From: an uncultured Clostridiaceae bacterium
Lineage (GTDB): Bacteria > Bacillota > Clostridia > Saccharofermentanales > UBA5734
Direction of reading: 5' to 3'
DNA length: 64,000 bases
NCBI GenBank assembly: GCA_942493365.1
Contig: OW818697.1
Span: 1,634,634-1,698,633 of the forward strand
Part shown: in pieces, positions 7,135-64,000 of the stretch
Numbering within the stretch: the first letter of the stretch is position 1
Layout: each line of letters opens with the position of its first letter
Program-made: the position numbers and the translations under genes
Notes under the pieces: model-generated
Seen by the model: the letters and a program-made list of their open reading frames with translations, nothing else
Databases searched by the model: none
Told to the model about the DNA's origin: nothing

Positions 7135-9202
7135 CGGGATACTTCACCCTTTCATGAAAATGGCCGGTGTAGACCTGTAAATAGGCCTCGACCAGAACTT
7201 CAACATCGTGATAAGACAAACCGGACGCAATCAGTTGGTCTTGTTCGTTTTTGGTTTTGATGATTTTTCGGATCAATTTTTCGGCATCCTCGAGCTTGTT
7301 CGTGCCCGTGGATTTCATCGCCGCCTCCACCGAGTCTGAGAGCATGACAATCGCCGACTCACGGCTTGATGGAATCGGACAGCGATACTTGAAACGCGTC
7401 GGATCAGGGTCTGGCCGATTGCCGTCCTCTGCGCCTTTAAGCGCTTTGTAGAGAAAATAGGTTTGCGCGGTCGATCCGTGATGTTCGTAGATAATTTTCA
7501 GAATCGGCCCCGGCAAGCGATAGCGGCGGCCAATACGCAGGCCGGCTTCGGGGTGATTGAGTATCATCTCGGCGCTTTCTTCCGGCGTAAGGAAATCATG
7601 CGGGTTTTCCCCTTCCTGGTTTTCCGTGAACATCAGCGGATTTTCCAGTTTGCCGATGTCGTGGTAATACGAGCCAACTCGAGCCAGCAAGGCATTGGCC
7701 CCGATGGCCAACGCGCCGGCGTCGGCCAGGTTGGCCACCATCATGCTGTGCTGGGAACTGCCGGGTGCTTCGACAAACAGCCGCCGCAGCAGCGGATGCC
7801 CGGGCTGGGAGAGCTCAATCAGGCGCATGGGCGATACCGAATTGAACAACATTTCAAAAAGCGGCATGATACCGATGGCCGCGATGACCGACAAGGCACC
7901 GCTCAAAGCAGCGTAGCCGCAGTTCAGCGAGATGTCGGCCCAGGTCTCACGTTGGAGCAGGCCATAGGAAATGGTCGCGATAAAATTGGCGCCCGCCGTC
8001 GTGATGATGATAAAGGCATAATTGTCCTTGCGGATGATGCCGCGCGTGAAAAGGGATGCCACCAGGCAGCCGCACATTGCGACGACCAAGAAAATCGGGT
8101 TGAAATTGGTCATCGGCAAGATGGCGGCCGTCAAGGCCAGCGAGAGAATGAGGGAGGCACGGAAGCCAAAATAGGAGGAGATCAGCACCGCTGCAAAGTA
8201 GACTGGCGGCGACAGCGGCGCGCCCCGGGTTGTATAGACCGAAACGAGCAGCGGAATCAGCAGGGCCAGCGCAAGCGCCGCGAAATCGCTGACCGTTTTG
8301 ATTGTTTCCTTTTCATAGTGCTTGATGTAAAAGCCGGTCATGCTGATCAAAAGCAGCAGGAGCAGGGCAATGCCGGCCAAATAGACAAAATCCAGACCGC
8401 CGCCGTCGATCAGTGACAGATCAAGGAGCAGGGCAAACGTGTCGTCGGTTATGATGTCACCCACCGAAACGATGCGGCTGCCCTTTTCGATCAGGACCGG
8501 GTTGGACAGGATTTTGTTGTAGGCGGCATCGCGGGCATTTTTGCTGGCGGCTTCGTCATAAACCACATTGGATTTCAGCAGAAATCCCAGGGTGGTTTCA
8601 ATAATCCGACTGTCATCTTTGTTGAAGGCCAAAGAGTTTTCCAGTTCGGTAATCTTTTCTGTCAATGAGTTTATCAAGCCCGCATCATCGACTTTATCCA
8701 GCATAATTAAATTGGCGATGGAAACAGCGTGATCTTTTACACTGGCAAATCTCTCATTGTCCAGACTGGCGTAAATCAAAGCATCGGTTTGCGCCAGGAC
8801 GATGCCAAACTGGCTGTTTACCTGCTCAACGATCTGCCCGGCCAGCTCGGCTGTCGTTATTCTGTCGGCACCGGCCGTCGGCAATGCAGCCCGCGCAGCT
8901 CTCAATTCCGTAATCAACGCAAAGAAATCGCTGACACTTTCATTGACAGCGTTCGCTCGCTCAACCGAGCGCAGCATAACATCCGGCACCTCCGCCGCTG
9001 CTTTTTCTGCTCGGATTTGCGTTTCAACCTTGTCGACGACGCTGCGCGGCGCGGCAATATCAACATTGCTGGCATCGCCGACCTTGAGATTGTATTTTTG
9101 CTGAATAGAGCCAATGTAGACAGCCAAAACAACCGTTGCAAACAAAATGACAGACAGGATGATGATCAGAAATCGTTTGAAGCCAGAAGTCATTTTGGGC
9201 AT
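7103..9202 (-). CDS. 7TM-HD membrane phosphohydrolase (PgpH/YqfF-like)
   Basis: N-terminal TM segment with an extracellular region, then seven TM helices, then an HD domain (HSMMVANLA...YYHDIGK). The start is trimmed to ATG 9202, 8 nt after GGAGGT. The phoH-HD-ybeY order is conserved. Confidence 0.85.
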   Translation of the reverse strand: MPKMTSGFKRFLIIILSVILFATVVLAVYIGSIQQKYNLKVGDASNVDIAAPRSVVDKVETQIRAEKAAAEVPDVMLRSVERANAVNESVSDFFALITELRAARAALPTAGADRITTAELAGQIVEQVNSQFGIVLAQTDALIYASLDNERFASVKDHAVSIANLIMLDKVDDAGLINSLTEKITELENSLAFNKDDSRIIETTLGFLLKSNVVYDEAASKNARDAAYNKILSNPVLIEKGSRIVSVGDIITDDTFALLLDLSLIDGGGLDFVYLAGIALLLLLLISMTGFYIKHYEKETIKTVSDFAALALALLIPLLVSVYTTRGAPLSPPVYFAAVLISSYFGFRASLILSLALTAAILPMTNFNPIFLVVAMCGCLVASLFTRGIIRKDNYAFIIITTAGANFIATISYGLLQRETWADISLNCGYAALSGALSVIAAIGIMPLFEMLFNSVSPMRLIELSQPGHPLLRRLFVEAPGSSQHSMMVANLADAGALAIGANALLARVGSYYHDIGKLENPLMFTENQEGENPHDFLTPEESAEMILNHPEAGLRIGRRYRLPGPILKIIYEHHGSTAQTYFLYKALKGAEDGNRPDPDPTRFKYRCPIPSSRESAIVMLSDSVEAAMKSTGTNKLEDAEKLIRKIIKTKNEQDQLIASGLSYHDVEVLVEAYLQVYTGHFHERVKYPDDRPIRQSAE

Positions 9203-56847: not shown

Positions 56848-56969
56848 ATTGATAGCTACGCTTTCCTGAAAGCTTTAAGTACACATCTATTACAGTGAAA
56901 AAGCTGGACGCATCGTTTCAATTGCGCCCCTGCTTAAACCAACATACTCTGCAAAATTGAACCAGTGCT

Positions 56970-57070
56970 TTTTGCTGCGATACAAGTTTCCCAAAGTTCT
57001 GAGCGATTAAAGAAATAATCAGGGTGTTCAGACTAACGCCTTCTTCTTCCGCTTGAACAGCAATTTCCTT
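56970..57070 (-). pseudogene. fragment of a hicB-type antitoxin 3' region (RHH-like C-terminus) duplicated from, or related to, 59424-59524
   Basis: By hand alignment about 91 of 101 nt are identical to the 3' end of the intact hicB. It encodes KEIAVQAEEEGVSLNTLIISLIAQNFGKLVSQQ versus KEIAIQAEEEGVSLNTLIISLISQNYGKLVSQQ. Confidence 0.8.
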
Positions 57071-57335
57071 AGTCAGCTTGAATACTGACTCTAAACCCGC
57101 CATAAAGATCATCCTTTCTAATCGGTTCAATTACAACGAGTGAAAATTCTACATCATCATCAAGATTTATCGCCATAATTTCTGCAACGGCTTTTCTTAA
57201 CGTGACCTCTGAAATAGGGTAATTTATAATTGTCGCATCCATATCCATGGTGGAACGCAGATCAATCCCAATACAAGCCGCAATCAACAAACCGCCTTTC
57301 AAAATGAAGTTGTCCTTATAATCCGATTTCGACAA
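57069..57335 (-). pseudogene. AbiEii/AbiGii-type nucleotidyltransferase toxin, truncated at both ends
   Basis: (NERFLERL)SKSDYKDNFILKGGLLIAACIGIDLRSTMDMDATI...IEPIRKDDLYGGFRVSIQA matches the N-terminal third of AbiEii (DUF1814) proteins. The ~40 N-terminal residues usual in this family and the whole C-terminal two thirds are missing. The frame ends where the hicB-like fragment begins. Confidence 0.7.
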
Positions 57336-57366
57336 TCTTTCTAAAAATCTTTCATTACTTTTCCAC

Positions 57367-57969
57367 TCACATGAGTACCTCCAAATAATTCCTCAAAGTC
57401 TTCTCAACACCTAACTCCCTGGCGGTTTCCATAAGTAATTGAAAATCCAATGATTTATTGTTGGCAACTCTTTTCAGTGCCTCACTGAAGATTTGAATAT
57501 CAATTCGATTTTTACTTCTGAGGACATCGCAGATCGTTCTTTCTAGCGAATAAACCGTGACGGTATTGCCAAAGGAAGTCTTGGTTTTTGTTACTCCCAA
57601 TAAGTGCAGATCTTTTTTGATGAAATAGATTTTAAACTTGTCAGTGATTGTTTTCACGACCTTGTAACCACTGGGCACCGTTGCCGAATACTCAAACAGC
57701 GTACGATCTGACATCCCATGTAAATACAGGGCTGTTTCATGCGAATAAATCAGCTTTGGATACTTGCCTTGCATGGCAAACATTACATCTTCGACGGCGT
57801 CAGGAAGTGCGTAGACGCCTCTACCTACCCTTTCAAGCTGGCCATCGGCCACCATCAGTGAAAGGTAGGTCCTGGGGATCTCATACTTGTTTAAGTCAGA
57901 GCTTAACACCGTACCGTTCTGTTGTTTGATCAGCTCATCCAATTTTTTTTGATTACCGAAAGTCTTCAC
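57367..57969 (-). CDS. AbiEi-family type IV toxin-antitoxin antitoxin (wHTH transcriptional regulator)
   Basis: GTVLSSDLNKYEIPRTYLSLMVADGQLERVGRGVYAL is an AbiEi N-terminal wHTH. The C-terminal part contains YSLERTICDVLR. GTG start. It lies directly upstream of the AbiEii remnant. Confidence 0.8.
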   Translation of the reverse strand: MKTFGNQKKLDELIKQQNGTVLSSDLNKYEIPRTYLSLMVADGQLERVGRGVYALPDAVEDVMFAMQGKYPKLIYSHETALYLHGMSDRTLFEYSATVPSGYKVVKTITDKFKIYFIKKDLHLLGVTKTKTSFGNTVTVYSLERTICDVLRSKNRIDIQIFSEALKRVANNKSLDFQLLMETARELGVEKTLRNYLEVLM

Positions 57970-58192
57970 CTACTTTTCATTTATACTTACATTATCATCT
58001 TAATAAGTATAATTGTAAAGATGTGGTTTGCAGGTATAAAATTCTTCTGTGACTTCCGGCTTTTCTTGATCAGCTGCAGCATTCTGGCGGCTGCACCACT
58101 TAGTTTATTGGTGCCGGTTTCCCATGCGGGGAGATACAGTATTGATGCAAATTCGCAGCATTTTTCATACCAAATGTCTCTTCACTATTCAT

Positions 58193-58214
58193 ATGTCGAT
58201 CAGTTCTCTAGGAT
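58193..58214. repeat. 22-nt exact direct repeat, copy 2 (the real 3' end of the NTase gene)
   Basis: Identical to 56826-56847. Confidence 0.9.
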
Positions 58215-58956
58215 CGACAGCATAAGCGCGTTAAGCGGTGCCCAATCGCCTTGCTTTTCGTTTGGCTTGGCTTCAATTTGCTCACGAATCACCCTCAGGT
58301 TTCGTTCGATGAAATTGTTTAGTTCATCAATGCGCGGCGTTTCGCGGATTTCCGGCGAGGTTGTTTTCAGCTTTAACAAATCGTCGATGATCGGCCTGAG
58401 TTCAGGTTCGAGCTGTGTTTCGACAAGCTCGGTGAAAGGCATGGGCGGCGGCGTCCCGTTCTGCAATATCCAGCGACACGCCAACAGCGGTCTGATCACA
58501 TAGAAATACTTTTTCGCCTTGACCATTTCGCCCTTGAGATAATCCCGATAGTTTCCCTCGGCCATGCTCAGATAATGCCACAGCCCGGATTTGGCTACGA
58601 AATACTTGCTGATGAGCGGCAATAATTTTTCGAAATGCTCCGAGGTTTTATAAACGATGGGTGAATTGCTCCATTCAAAAAGAGTCGGATTTGAGGTATG
58701 CAAAAGCTTGAGCGTTTTGTCAATATCCCAGCCGTTAAATATCCAGCACGTCACTGAGCGGATATTCCATCACGTCTCTAGGCTTGTCGAGTCGAAGGTA
58801 ATGTTCCTTTGAACGCACGTAAAAAAAGCGCACATCATAATCGCTGTCGGGCGAGGCGAAGCCCCAAGCCCGGCTGCCGGATTCAACAGCATGTAAAATG
58901 GTGATATTTTCCGATCTCTCAATTTCTGTCAGTTTCTCAATGATGATTGCTTGCAT
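58200..58956 (-). pseudogene. Pol-beta superfamily nucleotidyltransferase (Nuc-transf/RlaP-like, YcgL-type) split by a frameshift in a T-run
   Basis: ORF 58735-58998 has LHAVESGSRAWGFASPDSDYDVRFFYV...PLSDVLDI*. ORF 58200-58754 continues in another frame with NGWDIDKTLKLLHTSNPTLFEWSNSPIVY.... Deleting one T from GATATTTAAC (plus-strand aaa at 58737-58739) restores ...DVLDINGWDIDK. The start is set to ATG 58956, after GAAGGGA. Confidence 0.75.
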
Positions 58957-59353
58957 CAAATGTCCCTTCCATGGCTGCCCTGAACGCTTTGTCGTCAAAG
59001 CCCGAATTTCTCTTCAATCCGAAATTGGGCAAAAGTTTCTGCGGCCGCGGTGAATTTGGCAGAACAACGGTCAGCACCAAATATTTGCTAATCACATCAG
59101 CTCGATCAAGTGAGTAACATTCCGAACCGTTTGGCTTGTCAAAGGAATCAAGAGGAATAAAAATCAGCCGGTTTTTCGTCACACCCACCCAATAATAAAT
59201 TGCGATAAACGCATTTACCAGAGGTGGGACAAATAAGGTCTGCATAAATGAGATCTGTTTATCAAATTTCCCAGTTGCCAACAGCTGCTCTTCCGGCAGT
59301 AAAAACTTCTCCAGCGCTTCGCGTGCAATTTGTTCTTGTTTTATCTTTTCCAT
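58937..59353 (-). CDS. hypothetical protein, possibly a bacterial PH-like (YokE/bPH-type) domain
   Basis: ~138 aa. The pattern LLATGKFDKQ....WVGVTKNRLIFIPLD recalls bPH domains, but the assignment is weak. ATG 59353 follows GGGAGGG. Confidence 0.4.
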   Translation of the reverse strand: MEKIKQEQIAREALEKFLLPEEQLLATGKFDKQISFMQTLFVPPLVNAFIAIYYWVGVTKNRLIFIPLDSFDKPNGSECYSLDRADVISKYLVLTVVLPNSPRPQKLLPNFGLKRNSGFDDKAFRAAMEGTFDASNHH

Positions 59354-59407
59354 ACTCAAACCCTCCCGGCGTTCAATGCCAAATTTGACTATAGTTTCTT
59401 CTGTTTA

Positions 59408-59782
59408 TTATAACCGATTATCATTTTGCTGCGATACAAGTTTCCCATAGTTCTGCGAGATTAAAGAAATAATCAGGGTGTTCAGACTAACGCCTTCCTC
59501 TTCAGCCTGGATGGCAATTTCTTTGTGTAAAGTTTTCGGCAACCTCAAAACAAGTCTTCCGCTAAAAGAAGTGCATGTTTCCTTCGGCGTCGGATAGCTC
59601 TGATGTTCCTCATAGTATTCATCCAGCCATAGCTCGCAAGCCGTTTTGGCCTCCAGAAGGGCCTCCGCTTCGCTTTCGCCGACAGCTGTGCAACCTGGAA
59701 GATCCGGGAACTCGACGACCCAGGAGATGTTTCCATTTTTGTTGGTATAGGGGAATACAGTTTTTCTATAGTTGGGGTACAT
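59408..59782 (-). CDS. hicB: HicB-family antitoxin (HicB fold plus C-terminal RHH-like DNA-binding tail); no hicA seen nearby
   Basis: ISWVVEFPDLPGCTAVGESEAEALLEAKTACELWLDEY is the HicB core. The C-terminal part is LRLPKTLHKEIAIQAEEEGVSLNTLIISLISQ. The start is ATG 59782 after AAGAGG (alternative 59806). Confidence 0.8.
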   Translation of the reverse strand: MYPNYRKTVFPYTNKNGNISWVVEFPDLPGCTAVGESEAEALLEAKTACELWLDEYYEEHQSYPTPKETCTSFSGRLVLRLPKTLHKEIAIQAEEEGVSLNTLIISLISQNYGKLVSQQNDNRL

Positions 59783-59810: not shown

Positions 59811-60671
59811 CTATTTAAACAGTCCCTCCCAATTGTCTGGGAACCCGTTGAATGCAAGATTAATATCATCAGCATATTTATGGACCAGAGCCGTAAGATT
59901 TTCAGAGAAAGATCGCCAATTTGAGCCTTTCTCTAGATTTAATCTCTTTAACATTATAATAACCGGAAATATTTTTATGCTATTGTAAGCAGAATCATCC
60001 TTAAATAGTTTAGGACGTTTCACGATTATTCGATTGTAGAGTCGACCATTGTGTGCGCAAATGTTCCGAATGTAACAAAGACACTCAAACCAGCCGGCAA
60101 GATAAAATTCGTCTATCCCAAAGCATAGTGCAATAGCTTTTTGATCTCCCGGTAACAGATTCCCAAAAAGTTTTGAAGTAATTCCAAATGACCAGGTTTC
60201 GATTGCCGCCCAGATAGGTAAGTCTTTATATATCTCAACATGATGCTTAACAAATGCTGCATCTATCATTTGATCGATTGCATTGGTATGCATTTTTAGA
60301 AACTTTTCGTGTTGCTGCTGATTCGAAAATATCGAACTATCTTTGTGGCAAATATTGCCGTACTTTATCGCCAAGTGGTTTGAAATTGAAGCTCGAAGTT
60401 TAATCTCAATTGGCTCGATTACAGCAATAAATAATCGACGTAGATTTTCATCAAATCTATAGATTCGGTAAATTTGTTCGAAAGTTGTACCTGAACGGAA
60501 AATATTGTTTCTTCGAAGTCCAAGACTATATGCGCTTAATCTGTAGTAGTGAATTCTAGATAGTAAGGTCTCGGCAGATTTATCGCTGCTGATAGTCATT
60601 CCGCGGTCCTTTAGGATTTGGATCTGCTGTTTTATCGTGGTAGCGGATTTTAAGCCTACATCATTTAGCAT
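59811..60671 (-). CDS. Abi_2 family (AbiD/AbiF-type) abortive infection protein, HEPN-like
   Basis: QIQILKDRGM...LLSRIHYYRLSAYS...IYRFDENLRRL...IEIKLRASISNHLA...YIRNICAHNGRLYN (Rx4H). The start is set to ATG 60671, because the upstream 12 codons of the ORF track lie inside the duplicated leader. Confidence 0.85.
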   Translation of the reverse strand: MLNDVGLKSATTIKQQIQILKDRGMTISSDKSAETLLSRIHYYRLSAYSLGLRRNNIFRSGTTFEQIYRIYRFDENLRRLFIAVIEPIEIKLRASISNHLAIKYGNICHKDSSIFSNQQQHEKFLKMHTNAIDQMIDAAFVKHHVEIYKDLPIWAAIETWSFGITSKLFGNLLPGDQKAIALCFGIDEFYLAGWFECLCYIRNICAHNGRLYNRIIVKRPKLFKDDSAYNSIKIFPVIIMLKRLNLEKGSNWRSFSENLTALVHKYADDINLAFNGFPDNWEGLFK

Positions 60672-60691
60672 ATGTTCACCCAGTCCGTTCC

Positions 60692-60757
60692 AAAAAAATG
60701 ACCCCACTTGGTCCGCGGTTTCTCTTTCGAGCCCTAAGCGTGTGGGGTACTGTTATC
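60692..60757 (-). ncRNA. structured leader/small RNA with an intrinsic terminator upstream of the Abi_2 gene (copy 1)
   Basis: The minus strand reads GGGGAUAACAGUACCCCACACGCUUAGGGCUCGAAAGAGAAACCGCGGACCAAGUGGGGUCAUUUUUUU. ACCCCAC/GUGGGGU form a 7-bp closing stem. Inner pairs are CGC/GCG, GG/CC and CUC-GAAA-GAG. A U7 tract follows. The 5' end is inferred from the promoter, not measured. Confidence 0.5.
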
Positions 60758-60760
60758 CCC

Positions 60761-60790
60761 ATTATACAACAAGTTCTGTGTCTAATGCAA
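60761..60790 (-). promoter_or_regulatory. candidate promoter driving the leader RNA and Abi_2 operon
   Basis: On the minus strand, TTGCAT (60790-60785), 18-nt spacer, TATAAT (60766-60761). It is conserved in the second copy (61580-61575 / 61556-61551). Confidence 0.5.
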
Positions 60791-60968
60791 CTTCAATATT
60801 GTTAGTTTGCGGAAAATTAAGTGACATTATTATGATACTATATGCGATACTGTATTTCAAGATTCTATACTTGCTTTTCAGTCAATTATATATCGCTTTT
60901 GAAATGTGATGAGCGACATTCGTTCGACAAATTTCGACAATAGCTCCTCTTGCTTTTGATCCATACCA

Positions 60969-61271
60969 TTACCTGACAGCCTTTCTAATTTCCTTCTCTT
61001 CCAACTGCAATTTGTTCAGTGTATCTTGAAAATAGTGGCGTTTGTCAATTTTCTTCTGAATTTCATCCGAGTCGAACTTATCCTTGGGCCCCAAATAGTC
61101 TGTCTTCACTTTTTTATGAACCCGATAGAGCAGATAGTAATAATCTCGATTCTTGACTTTTTTCAAAATGATCTTGCCTTTAGGCAGCGCGTCAATTTGT
61201 TCCTGGTATGATTTTTGCATGTCCAGATTTCGTTCCAATTCTTCGATGAGAACATTTTTAACTATTGACAC
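60969..61271 (-). CDS. small basic protein of unknown function (100 aa), possible DNA-binding autoregulator
   Basis: GTG start 5 nt after GAGGTG. It contains KGKIILKKVKNRDYYYLLYRVHKKVKTDYLG plus a charged helical tail. I know the motif from small proteins in mobile/defence contexts but cannot name a family. Confidence 0.55.
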   Translation of the reverse strand: MSIVKNVLIEELERNLDMQKSYQEQIDALPKGKIILKKVKNRDYYYLLYRVHKKVKTDYLGPKDKFDSDEIQKKIDKRHYFQDTLNKLQLEEKEIRKAVR

Positions 61272-61320
61272 TATGTCACCTCATACATAAAAAATAATCA
61301 AAACTGAAATTGGCAGGTTT

Positions 61321-61419
61321 TACCCTACATAATGAAATATTGTTGGCAATTTGTAGGGTATCCATTTAAATGTATTCTACCATACATATATAGATTTTTC
61401 CATATAATTGTAGGGTATC
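61321..61419. promoter_or_regulatory. operator-like triad of TGTAGGGTA motifs around a candidate promoter of the 100-aa gene
   Basis: TTGTAGGGTATC occurs at 61351-61362 and 61408-61419, with an inverted TACCCTACA at 61321-61329. The minus-strand promoter is TGGAAA (61402-61397), 17 nt, TGgTAGAAT (TAGAAT at 61379-61374). Confidence 0.45.
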
Positions 61420-61465
61420 TTTATTCCTCTACTTTCTAAATAATCCGCTTCTTCTCGTCCATACG

Positions 61466-61593
61466 CTCACCCAGTCCATCCAAAATAAAAGACCCCACTT
61501 GGTCCGCGGTTTCTCTTTCGAGCCCTAAGCGTGTGGGGTACTGTTATCCCCATTATACAACAAGTTCTGTGTCTCATGCAATTCACTCAATAT
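61466..61593. repeat. ~128-nt direct repeat, copy 2 (orphan leader module)
   Basis: See copy 1. It is followed on the minus strand by GGGTGAGCGT ATG GAC GAG AAG AAG CGG ATT ATT TAG, only 8 codons. Confidence 0.95.
61481..61547 (-). ncRNA. second copy of the structured RNA with terminator, not followed by an abi gene
   Basis: The RNA core is identical to copy 1. The U-tract is CUUUUAUUUU. Its own TTGCAT-18-TATAAT promoter is retained. Confidence 0.45.
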
Positions 61594-61663
61594 TACATTC
61601 ATTCAATTTTACATCGCATTAGAAATGAACAGAACGTCGTTCGTTCGACAAATCTCGACAAAA

Positions 61664-62551
61664 CTATTCCACTTTCCCAATGATCCGCTCGGCAATGTCC
61701 TGACCAAAGGGCACGCTGCCGTCATCGCCCGTGAACGCGGTCCACTCGTCGTAAATCGCCCGCAGATCAGCGTCCAAGTAAGTCAACGCCCGCTCGCGCA
61801 ACGCCTGCGGAATGCCATAGTAAGCCTCGGCGATGCCGCCGGTAATGGCCGCCAGCGTGTCGCTGTCGCCGCCGACCGAAATGGCGGTGCGGATGGCGTC
61901 CTCGAACGACACCGACTCCAGAAACGCCTCGATCGCCTGCGGCACCGTGTCCTGGCAGGTCTCATTGAAACGGTAGCTCGCCCGGATCTCGTCGATCGTG
62001 AAATCCAGCGGGTAATAGTCCGCCTCGATCCGCCGCCGGATCTCCTGGCGGGTCGCGCCCTGCCGCGCCATGACCATGGCCACCACCGTCGCCTCGGCCC
62101 CTTTGAGGCCCTCCACGTGATCGTGCGTGACCGCCGTGATCACCCGCGAAAGCTGGACGGCATCATCCTCCGACCGCGCGAAATCCCCCACCGGGCTGAT
62201 GCGCATGGCCGCCCCATTGCCAAAACTCTGGTAGGGCTGCGGATGGTCGCTGAACATCCAATTCGCGAACCGGCCGCCATAGCCGCAGTTGGGATACTTG
62301 CGGCCGATTTCCTGCATCCATTGGACCGTCAGTTCGCCGAGGCGCGCATCATACTCGGGGCTGTAGCCCCAGCCGCTTTCCCGCAACGGTTTCAATTTAG
62401 CTGCGGCCATGATCGCCTTGGCCACGGCGAGGGTCATGATGCTGTCGTCGGTGGCAAAGCAGCTCGCGGCAAATAATTCGAAGTCTTTGCTGCGATGATT
62501 GTTGAATTCAAATCGCGACCCGACGATGTCGCCAATGATTGCTCCTAGCAT
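61664..62551 (-). CDS. ADP-ribosylglycohydrolase family protein (DraG/ARH-like)
   Basis: MLGAIIGDIVGSRFEF...TDDSIMTLAVAKAI...GNGAAMRISPVG...GGDSDTLAAITGGIAEAYYG are the canonical ARH metal-binding motifs. Its G+C is visibly higher than both flanks. Confidence 0.9.
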   Translation of the reverse strand: MLGAIIGDIVGSRFEFNNHRSKDFELFAASCFATDDSIMTLAVAKAIMAAAKLKPLRESGWGYSPEYDARLGELTVQWMQEIGRKYPNCGYGGRFANWMFSDHPQPYQSFGNGAAMRISPVGDFARSEDDAVQLSRVITAVTHDHVEGLKGAEATVVAMVMARQGATRQEIRRRIEADYYPLDFTIDEIRASYRFNETCQDTVPQAIEAFLESVSFEDAIRTAISVGGDSDTLAAITGGIAEAYYGIPQALRERALTYLDADLRAIYDEWTAFTGDDGSVPFGQDIAERIIGKVE

Positions 62552-62847
62552 AGGGGGTTACCTCGTTGTGGAAATTTGCTCAAAGTGTGTCCGAGGCCAT
62601 AAGACTCGATTTTAACGTTGGACTGACGTCATTTAGAATTATTATAACTGTGATCGTGGGCTTTGCGAAAAGTTTAGATGGCCTTTAAGCGGTTTTGCAA
62701 GGCATTGTCCAATTTATAGATTCGATGCTATAACTGCTGATCGATCTTGTAAAATGCATCCAGCCTGGACGTCTTTTCTTGTATTTGCACTTGTTCACCT
62801 CGCGTTGATCCCTACGGATCGTAAAACGGATGCGAACTCCTATTCTG

Positions 62848-63543
62848 TCAAAATAAATCTAAGTCGCTGATTTGCATCTGTAAAGATATTGCTGGCTTTT
62901 TGTAGCAGCTTATAAAAGCAGCTCTACTTGATAATGCTTTATCAAGCTGTCCGAGATTAAGTAAACTAACAAACAGCGCTGCTGACCTAGCCTGGCAATT
63001 TACGGATTTATTATGATTGAATTCGATATCCGTAAATATTTCGAAAGAATTTAACTCTTTTGCGAGATCAGGATTTTGTAGTAAGGCGTTAATATATAGC
63101 CAGTCATAAAAAGCCGTTTTCGGTTCAAGCGACCAATCGCACCCGCTATATTGGAAATTCAACAACCTACCAGAATTTTTCAGTCGCATATCCTTTTTTG
63201 CTTCGCTTGCTGAACAATTCAGTAAATCTGTAAATGGCCCACCACAAGCAAATACTTTTGCTGATTGAAATATGTTCTCAATACTAACTCGTCTATCCAG
63301 ATCATCAACCTTCATTTTCAAATTGAAAGCACTTAGGGCAACACCTAACGGGTTTTCGGATTTTGATGAGATTTCGAGCATTCGTTTCTCGGAATATTTT
63401 TTCTTTATTTGGTTATGCAGTGATCGAATTGATTTTTGTTTCTGGCTTACAGAAAAGCCCGTAAAGAATTCAAAGTCACATAACTCTTCCGAAATAAAGT
63501 GCTTTTCATTAGGAGTTGATCTAAAGAATAATCTTTGTGCCAT
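62848..63543 (-). CDS. NADAR-like (YbiA/DUF1768 superfamily) protein, candidate DarT1-associated antitoxin
   Basis: PLGVALSAFNLKMKVDDLDRRVSIENIFQSAKVF parallels the NADAR core (FSNF..-~15 aa-..SEHYFQAQKF in E. coli YbiA). FYDWLYINAL...FTDIEFNHNKSVNCQARSAALF is a pattern I associate with DarT1-linked NADAR proteins. The ATG is 9 nt after the upstream stop, with GAGG as RBS. Confidence 0.55.
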   Translation of the reverse strand: MAQRLFFRSTPNEKHFISEELCDFEFFTGFSVSQKQKSIRSLHNQIKKKYSEKRMLEISSKSENPLGVALSAFNLKMKVDDLDRRVSIENIFQSAKVFACGGPFTDLLNCSASEAKKDMRLKNSGRLLNFQYSGCDWSLEPKTAFYDWLYINALLQNPDLAKELNSFEIFTDIEFNHNKSVNCQARSAALFVSLLNLGQLDKALSSRAAFISCYKKPAISLQMQISDLDLF

Positions 63544-63552
63544 GAATAGGCC

Positions 63553-64000
63553 TCACTTCCAATAGGCAAAGTCGTGCCTATAACTAAAGTATTCACGAGA
63601 GTAACTACTGTTGATATTGAGATTACGAGATTTGACAAGCGTTTCTACTTCATTATGCACATCATTGGTAGGCGCTAATATTCCAGTAATATATTCAATG
63701 CTAATACGCTCTTTGACTAATACCTCAGCTTGCGGATTAGATGTGAAATTGTCAGTTAAAGCCAGATCTCCACGCGTTTTTTCTCCCGCCTTGGTTGTAA
63801 TACGATCGCTAAATAATCGCTGTATTCCGGCGATACCTTTTAGCTGGTCTGGATAATTGAAGATATAGTTTAGATATTTCGTTGCATTATGCGGGCAGTA
63901 AAGCACATCTTGATATTTATTCGCCAATATAATCGGGTTTATGGTTAACATAATCCATTTATTGTCAAGATGATGTAATTTGTTCCAAAGCATCAGATAA
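63553..64000 (-). CDS. DarT-like (DUF4433-type) DNA ADP-ribosyltransferase toxin, C-terminal part (5' end probably beyond the window)
   Basis: The C-terminal NPQAEVLVKERISIEYITGILAP resembles the DarT ARTT-loop glutamate motif (QAEFLV followed by ..I..IGV). The frame is still open at nt 64000. It is followed immediately by the NADAR-like gene. Confidence 0.5.
   Translation of the reverse strand, partial: YLMLWNKLHHLDNKWIMLTINPIILANKYQDVLYCPHNATKYLNYIFNYPDQLKGIAGIQRLFSDRITTKAGEKTRGDLALTDNFTSNPQAEVLVKERISIEYITGILAPTNDVHNEVETLVKSRNLNINSSYSREYFSYRHDFAYWK

Follow-up and report, generated by a model that had tools for sequence, protein, structure and literature searches.

AbiD/F defence is the ancestor lineage of Cas13, and the RNA element known as the abiF motif was reportedly described by Weinberg et al. 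in 2017. This motif (RF03085) occurs upstream of Abi_2 genes (PMC12373285), and for the lactococcal AbiD/F group a system of protein and RNA together is now described (PMC13064643). Here we examine a stretch of 64,000 nt from an uncultured Clostridiaceae bacterium (contig OW818697.1, positions 1,634,634 to 1,698,633; hereafter the window, with positions counted from its first letter), in which an Abi_2 gene on the minus strand is headed by a short structured RNA (copy B), and a second copy of that RNA with its promoter (copy A) stands farther upstream with no toxin gene behind it. The locus is very probably an AbiF/AbiFr (AbiD/F group) type III-like toxin-antitoxin (TA) and abortive-infection module.

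In C. difficile, the RNA RCd22 has two abiF motifs, is located between a sigma-A promoter and abiF, undergoes premature termination, and neutralises the toxic AbiFCd whether in cis or in trans through direct binding (PMC12373285). For PbAbiF, the cryo-electron microscopy structure with AbiFr (8VZ6; Zilberzwige-Tal et al., Cell 2025) is reported to contain one RNA for each monomer of the HEPN dimer, and a single-stranded bulge of the RNA inhibits the ribonuclease (RNase) (PMC12737573, PMC12373285); toxicity of PbAbiF and its neutralisation through direct RNA binding are likewise reported in a review (PMC12737573). The system as such is published, and the window locus is a further AbiF/AbiFr example with a long-loop RNA subtype that Rfam misses.

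Results

The RNA upstream of the Abi_2 gene

Copy B reads GGGGAUAACAGUACCCCACACGCUUAGGGCUCGAAAGAGAAACCGCGGACCAAGUGGGGUC on the minus strand (60760-60700), followed by an A and the U7 tract, and every element that a preliminary description of this DNA had reported for it was read again at the same positions: the TTGCAT-18-TATAAT promoter, the U7 tract, GGGUGA, and the abi ATG 21 nt past the end of the RNA (Table 1). That description recognised no named Rfam family in the RNA. On this point we differ, as sequence comparison identifies the RNA as a genuine member of the abiF motif/AbiFr antitoxin family, namely a long-loop variant of RF03085, though Rfam's own model misses it.

The evidence for this assignment comes from the upstream regions of related genes. 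Homologues of the window protein were collected together with their surrounding DNA, with a locus search from an 11-sequence protein alignment, and 85 of the 87 Abi_2 upstream regions fit one layout: P1 of 6 bp, then a bulged A and P2 (CGC), a loop that varies, P2' (GCG), the 6-nt bulge GACCAN, P1' and finally a tail rich in U. The arrangement is identical to the RF03085 consensus line <<<<<<-<<<___________>>>------>>>>>>, and the core AACAGUACCCCAC...GUGGGGUCAUUUU shows about 90% conservation ahead of genes whose proteins have only 47-83% identity. Over 52 distinct sequences, 100% of the cells in P1 and P2 hold standard pairs and compensatory changes occur in 7 of the 9 pairs, all six pairs of P1 (CCCCAC/GUGGGG in the window) among them; the covariation score is 0.353 as against 0.098 for shuffled alignments, none of 500 shuffles reaches it, and sliding the 3' partner lowers pairing to 19-51%. 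The conservation and covariation upstream of homologues that the preliminary description had proposed looking for are thus present. The single-stranded elements, namely the 5' AACAG, the bulged A and the ACCA bulge, are conserved as well, the ACCA bulge in 48-52 of the 52 sequences. Copy B is located immediately upstream of an Abi_2 gene, as is typical of the motif, and copy A lacks that feature.

A comparison of the cmscan type, also suggested in the preliminary description, failed with Rfam's own model and succeeded with another. RF03085 gave no match at E≤10, whether 4 kb or a slice of 141 nt was scanned, and the window RNA does not reach its gathering threshold of 37 bits, which canonical relatives pass at 38-45 bits. 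At that threshold RF03085 detects only relatives with an 11-nt loop (L011, L023, L050 and L058) and misses long-loop forms, for instance L004 of the window's own clade. On the other hand, a covariance model (R1) built only from 11 canonical 11-nt-loop motifs found copy B (60692-60757) at 52.5 bits (E=1.2e-10) and copy A (61483-61548) at 52.2 bits (E about 1e-10), with no further match in the 64-kb window; as the model was built from canonical motifs only, its finding both copies at about 52 bits argues for homology beyond resemblance. The full Rfam scan, likewise at E≤10 and on the same two pieces, gave no family match on the RNA except a 15-nt local one, in which GGACCAAGUGGGGUC (3' half of the RNA, 60700-60714, minus strand) matches positions 28-42 of gut-2 (RF02990; consensus GGgCCAAUuGGGGcC) at 13 bits. 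We regard this as noise or chance, or at most as a distant hint of a relationship between gut-2 and abiF.

Judged by sequence, the apical segment is the only structural departure of the window RNA from the canonical motif: the 11-nt loop CUCUYAAMRAU is replaced by 21 nt of different sequence, UUAGGGCUCGAAAGAGAAACC, which can form GG/CC plus a CUC-GAAA-GAG mini-helix as part of the minimum free energy (MFE) fold. The same 21-nt-loop subtype is present in L001, L002, L004, L007, L008, L089-091 and L093-098. A sister subtype with an 18-nt loop has an apical helix that is 100% paired, with one pair showing compensatory changes from G-C to A-U in two sequences; the helix is extended in L078, and L059 has a large insertion. 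These sequences lend modest support to an apical helix at the same position. A corresponding helix (P3) in the window RNA is plausible. At least three long-loop subtypes upstream of Abi_2 genes go unannotated by RF03085, and because that model detects only the 11-nt-loop form, many AbiD/F loci appear to be single genes though they are RNA-protein pairs.

Promoter, transcript and tail

In 49 of 57 distinct upstream contexts, both window copies included, a hexamer resembling a -10 box (a perfect one in copy B) has its end exactly 6 nt ahead of AACAG. Because this spacing is fixed across the family, the predicted start of transcription falls at or beside AACAG, and the mapped start of RCd22, whose abiF motif begins at +9, agrees with the window geometry (PMC12373285). 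The stretch GGGGAT thus lies between the -10 box of copy B and the presumed start, and its GGGG is probably untranscribed, being inside the fixed spacer; every homologue has unrelated bases there. The preliminary description had proposed two mutually exclusive folds, with the GGGG pairing with the CCCC of the left arm as an antiterminator. We reject this candidate, since the GGGG is unconserved and sits in the 6-nt spacer upstream of the presumed start.

Folding depends on the same point. When the RNA is folded from AACAG, the MFE and centroid structures are both the abiF hairpin with a GAAA-capped tip, in either copy, and to that extent the ACCCCAC/GUGGGGU hairpin of the preliminary description stands; when the 5' GGGG is included (74 nt), the hairpin is no longer the MFE fold, which becomes another structure with GGGG paired to CCCC and a z-score of -0.58, no better than shuffles. 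Single-sequence thermodynamics is uninformative for this RNA. In the tail, at least 6 U are found among the 10 nt after P1' in 96% of distinct sequences, and because the U-rich tail is conserved we infer that the 3' end is formed here, with the GC-rich P1 as the terminator stem. The tails of the two copies differ (copy B: AUUUUUUU; copy A in Table 1). The rigid geometry of promoter, start and motif, together with the U-tail directly after P1, defines the antitoxin transcript precisely enough for cloning and testing.

The predicted toxin gene

The open reading frame (ORF) downstream of copy B matches Abi_2 in Pfam (PF07751, E=1e-49), AbiD in PADLOC (E=9e-89) and an abortive infection protein in PHROG (E=1e-57). 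Its product aligns over residues 11-282 with PbAbiF (8VZ6; phmmer E=2.4e-25), and the RNICAH motif of the HEPN-type Rx4H form, which the preliminary description had pointed out, is indeed present at R202-H207, where R202 and H207 align with the catalytic R210 and H215 of PbAbiF. Among 35 homologues N203, C205 and H207 are invariant and R202 nearly so. The R210/H215 double mutant of PbAbiF is reported to be inactive (PMC12373285). The recorded version of the window protein (P0001) has 262 aa and starts at M25; because residues K8 to G24 are kept among homologues (K8, L20, R23, G24), sequence conservation indicates that the ATG at 60671, giving 286 aa, is the true start and is preferable to the recorded one.

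Copy A, a toxin-less duplicate

A feature absent from the preliminary description is that the whole module of promoter, RNA, U-tract, ribosome-binding site (RBS) and ATG is duplicated 791 nt upstream of copy B. Copy A was located by repeat finding and alignment after a terminator scan had flagged GGACCAAGTGGGGTC again near 61500. The two units of the repeat (D1) are 93% identical over 122 nt, with no difference at all (100%) in the promoter hexamers and the hairpin; no chance match to the module would be expected in the window, and it is present twice. Only a 7-codon ORF follows copy A, and a tblastn search with 120 Abi_2 proteins found no Abi_2 remnant near it or elsewhere in the 64 kb, so copy A is a toxin-less, orphan promoter-RNA module. 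About 190 nt beyond the 7-codon ORF lies another ORF, of 100 aa, which is unrelated and has an RBS to itself.

The duplication extends upstream of the promoters into two segments with 80% identity that begin directly behind the stop codon of the gene preceding each. They hold an internally repeated box, TTGTCGA-N-ATTTGTCGAACGAA, also written TTGTCGA-N4-TTGTCGAACGAA, and no TTGTCGA box was found in the 104 related loci searched. Copy A probably arose by rearrangement, which is unsurprising since the locus lies in a patchwork defence/TA island (see below).

Orphan abiF RNAs elsewhere

Toxin-less copies are not peculiar to the window. A metagenome scan with the pattern of the window subtype returned ten loci, nine of them genuine and one a chance match (L092). 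In L089 and L091 the RNA is followed by Abi_2. In L090 (4085-4150, minus strand) and L093-95 an orphan RNA with a promoter is found 277 nt downstream of a Tn916-like xis/int pair and Abi_2 nowhere in the contig, and in L096 (841-906, minus strand), L097 and L098 an orphan RNA with a promoter lies beside an IS3-like transposase and bears the compensatory P1 change ACUCCAC/GUGGAGU. The L090 and L096 groups also have a 210-aa neighbour gene in common, which is arranged differently in each.

Among viral contigs the window subtype occurs only in L008, a phage module for packaging and head formation that carries genes for a small terminase, an exonuclease, a large terminase and a portal. Its RNA (7424-7488) follows the portal region, has no canonical promoter, and has a U4 tail overlapping the ATG of the next ORF, which is unlike Abi_2; no Abi_2 was found in the remaining 165 nt of the contig. 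A separate search for DNA similarity to phage genomes found none.

Toxin-less copies are far more frequent in the canonical form. A scan of IMG/VR viral contigs (L105-L224) gave at least 120 matches, and the counts that follow refer to the 104 matches listed that have at least 700 nt downstream; the census is redundant, with about 30 contigs in a single tRNA-Asn group. Abi_2 follows the motif in 21 of the 104 and not in the other 83, and for these 83 orphans an Abi_2 gene is found nowhere in the fetched loci. They represent 40 distinct sequences, of which 34 retain 5-6 of the 6 P1 pairs in stems that differ greatly in sequence. Thirty-seven orphans, as against 0 of the 21 toxin-linked motifs, lie within 30 nt of a tRNA gene on the same strand, and several of them sit inside tRNA arrays. 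Because of this proximity we suggest that these RNAs may mature together with the tRNAs.

Genomic context

GC content is low in the stretch that holds the module (35-47%, as against 52-62% in the genome flanks), and the locus is part of a patchwork defence/TA island. Directly upstream are DarT, a NADAR antitoxin and an ADP-ribosylglycohydrolase; the glycohydrolase gene has 56-63% GC and its neighbours 35-42%, so this region is a mosaic. Downstream, decayed TA or defence genes occupy 56918-59782 (minus strand).

The ORF of 100 aa that separates the two RNA modules carries a precomputed DUF6788 annotation, despite which a Pfam scan at E≤0.01 gave no match. As a recurrent partner of the RNA it was rejected: its homologue loci (L099-L104) are without abiF RNA, and because of this the juxtaposition appears accidental and the ORF probably stands outside the system. 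In two of these loci (L103:4001-4990 and L104:304-1293) the DUF6788 homologue abuts an NTP_transf_8 nucleotidyltransferase gene, which suggests, from gene order, a toxin-antitoxin-like pair. Upstream of the ORF in the window (61300-61430, minus strand) ATACCCTACAA occurs twice in direct orientation and once inverted, as TGTAGGGTA; these copies flank TGGAAA-17-TAGAAT, which resembles a promoter and has a TG extension, and the array looks like a putative operator for autoregulation.

Table 1. Features of the locus and its surroundings, in window positions unless a locus handle is given
Feature	Position	Strand	Basis or remark
Abi_2 toxin gene (AbiD/F-type HEPN RNase, 286 aa)	59811..60671	-	Pfam, PADLOC, PHROG, PDB matches
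Rx4H motif RNICAH	60051-60068	-	R202-H207
RBS GGGTGA (60676-60681) and ATG (60669-60671) of Abi_2 gene	60669..60681	-	sequence; N-terminal conservation
abiF-type antitoxin RNA copy B (toxin-linked), AACAG to U7 end	60692..60754	-	sequence, covariance model, fold, covariation
Copy B U7 tract	60692-60698	-	sequence
Copy B P1, ACCCCAC/GUGGGGU	60742-60748/60701-60707	-	sequence, fold
Copy B 3' bulge GACCAA	60708-60713	-	sequence, fold
Copy B P2, CGC/GCG	60738-60740/60714-60716	-	sequence, fold
Copy B apical extension, 21 nt, putative P3 (GG/CC + CUC-GAAA-GAG)	60717-60737	-	fold
Copy B bulged A	60741	-	sequence, fold
GGGGAT between -10 box and presumed start	60755-60760	-	
Copy B promoter: -10 TATAAT (60761-60766), 18-nt spacer, -35 TTGCAT (60785-60790)	60761..60790	-	sequence, family spacing
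Duplicated upstream segment, copy B side	60877-60940	-	repeat
Upstream box TTGTCGAAATTTGTCGAACGAA, copy B side, in duplicated upstream segment	60919..60940	-	repeat
DUF6788 (PF20586) ORF, 100 aa, between the two RNA modules	60969..61271	-	precomputed annotation
Copy A putative relic leader: RBS GGGTGA and ATG, 7-codon ORF MDEKKRII-stop	61436..61472	-	copies diverge right after ATG
Duplicated module (repeat D1)	61460-61581	-	repeat finding, alignment
abiF-type RNA copy A (orphan), hairpin identical to copy B, tail UUUUAUUUU	61482..61545	-	repeat, covariance model, fold
Copy A promoter, same TTGCAT-18-TATAAT	61552..61581	-	alignment, spacing
Duplicated upstream segment, copy A side	61598-61661	-	repeat
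Upstream box TTGTCGAGATTTGTCGAACGAA, copy A side	61640..61661	-	repeat
DarT (cut by window end), NADAR antitoxin, ADP-ribosylglycohydrolase	61664-63993	-	directly upstream
AbiEi	57367-57969	-	then ORF 57069-57335, by-eye putative AbiEii N-terminal fragment
RlaP, frameshift-split	58200-58754 + 58735-58998	-	
Solo HicB without HicA	59408-59782	-	90%-identical 101-nt fragment at 56970-57070, 2.4 kb away
Example viral orphan RNAs	L162:6917-7035, L133:282-400, L106:548-670, L149:912-1030, L178:6153-6270		

Discussion

The case for an AbiF/AbiFr module is built on sequence anatomy, RNA and protein homology, stem covariation, promoter spacing and the U-tail. The type III TA-like arrangement that the preliminary description had put forward is borne out at the level of sequence, where promoter, RNA, terminator-like U-tract and Abi_2 toxin all follow in that order, and its proposal that the RNA is an antitoxin or partner of the Abi protein gains weight from the homology of the RNA to the abiF motif and of the protein to PbAbiF (8VZ6).

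We envisage the following scheme, in which analogy with the described systems supplies the stop at U7, the toxicity, the binding between RNA and protein, the trigger and the part played by copy A. The sigma-A-type promoter would start transcription at about AACAG, and the first 63 nt or so would fold into the abiF hairpin, with its 7-bp P1, bulged A, 3-bp P2, GACCAA bulge and 21-nt extension. With P1 abutting the U7 tract, most transcripts would probably stop there and release free antitoxin RNA, and a minority would read through to the RBS and the ATG 21 nt downstream, giving the HEPN RNase. A dimer of the RNase would bind one hairpin per monomer, and the conserved ACCA bulge would block the Rx4H active site (R202/H207). 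Phage infection might then lower the RNA supply, upon which free AbiF would cleave RNA and the infection would be aborted. Copy A would make the same RNA, most likely as extra antitoxin in trans.

Several observations weigh against this reading. The RNA goes unseen by RF03085, as reported above, and its thermodynamic z-scores are weak (-0.6 to -1.8). Copy B was passed over by the terminator scan, its hairpin being longer and less regular than an intrinsic terminator would be. The -35 box TTGCAT matches TTGACA at 3 of 6 positions and is unlisted by a consensus promoter scan. In the near-invariant sequences of the window subtype every cell of P3 is paired, and 76 of 500 shuffles equal this. Finally, copy A could be a silent relic.

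This last point leads to the most serious alternative, namely that copy B is the working antitoxin and copy A a dead remnant, with no present function, of another abiF locus that lost its toxin by deletion or replacement, which we regard as quite possible though not probable. The RBS and ATG of copy A lead into a 7-codon ORF, the island is full of decayed TA pieces (the frameshifted RlaP, the HicB fragment and the putative AbiEii fragment), the L096-98 orphans adjoin an IS3-like transposase, and loss of the toxin with the antitoxin kept is the tolerated direction of decay. Nevertheless, the promoters and hairpins of the two copies are 100% identical whereas their flanks are about 80% identical, which argues for selection or recent gene conversion, and in the C. 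difficile system RNA supplied in trans is active (PMC12373285).

The toxin-less abiF RNAs might form a functional class, with copy A a stand-alone buffer for AbiF that does not depend on transcription of the toxin and the copies in phages and integrative elements antitoxin mimics that disarm host AbiD/F defence; we offer this as a tentative and rather doubtful suggestion. What speaks for it is indirect: the predominance of orphans among the canonical motifs listed from viral contigs, their retained P1 pairing, their proximity to tRNA genes, and the toxin-less occurrence of the window subtype in L008 and in the L090 and L096 groups. There is a precedent in pseudo-ToxI, a phage RNA that mimics a type III antitoxin and disarms ToxIN (PMC3475682), and an abiF small RNA has been mentioned, without any proposal for its role, from cyanophage S-CREM1 and from three phage genomes in Rfam (PMC9964418). 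Were the suggestion true, phages could counter AbiD/F defence by RNA mimicry.

The preliminary description also raised the alternative that the RNA is a cis-acting transcription attenuator or riboswitch-like leader only, switching between antiterminator and terminator with no role as an antitoxin in trans. The 74-nt fold that pairs GGGG with CCCC and the conserved U-rich tail directly after P1 would both accord with such a switch, and the authors of the RCd22 study also describe a riboswitch-like component of premature termination (PMC12373285). Against this, the GGGG occurs in no homologue and falls before the presumed start, and the conserved single-stranded ACCA bulge corresponds to what contacts the protein in the published structure as reported (PMC12737573). 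A purely cis-acting device also fits poorly with an identical module in the window that has no toxin downstream and with further orphan copies elsewhere, and we consider it very improbable. That the repeat acts at the level of DNA, for instance as a recombination or operator cassette with an incidental hairpin, is exceedingly unlikely: the duplicated unit does include the upstream TTGTCGA-N-TTGTCGA box, but that box is absent from all other loci searched, and the compensatory changes that keep 100% pairing over 52 distinct sequences contradict such a reading.

Comparison with known systems

With the abiF motif as defined by RF03085, the window RNA shares the 6-bp P1, the single bulged A, the 3-bp P2 (CGC/GCG), the 6-nt bulge with ACC and P1', as well as, in copy B, the position directly upstream of an Abi_2 gene; it differs in its apical loop, where 21 nt (UUAGGGCUCGAAAGAGAAACC) stand in place of the 11-nt CUCUYAAMRAU.

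The RCd22-AbiFCd pair of prophage phi027 presents the same order of sigma-A promoter, abiF-motif RNA, U-tract, RBS and Abi_2 HEPN toxin; R202 and H207 have identical residue numbers, and the motif begins about 8-9 nt past the transcription start in both. RCd22, however, has two motifs in one RNA of about 100-130 nt and a separate terminator hairpin, whereas the window has one motif per RNA, a P1 that abuts the U-tract, and a second motif from a separate gene 791 nt away. The settings differ too, the window locus being in a chromosomal defence island and RCd22-AbiFCd in a prophage lysis module. Elsewhere in the collection, Clostridium ragsdalei (L020:2870-2986) has two tandem abiF motifs before one Abi_2 gene, as in RCd22, and a contig from an uncultured Prevotella sp. 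metagenome-assembled genome (L085:923-5697) carries three Abi_2 genes in a span of 5 kb, of which two or more have a motif of their own.

PbAbiF and the window protein are homologous over their full length with the catalytic R and H aligned, and one hairpin per monomer would be expected here as well; the protein similarity is distant. The Bacteroidales RNA subtype differs in having no bulged A and a CGCUYA bulge.

The ToxIN/AbiQ type III TA systems follow the same logic of promoter, RNA antitoxin, terminator, endoribonuclease toxin and abortive infection, but their toxin has an unrelated, non-HEPN fold, and ToxI consists of tandem 36-nt repeats cut by the toxin (PMC5086642, PMC3475682). A tandem array of the ToxIN type was considered for the window and set aside, there being one motif per transcript and two copies 791 nt apart with their own promoters. 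Measured against these systems, what goes beyond the known is the orphan copy A and the abundance of toxin-less abiF RNAs in phages, and only these.

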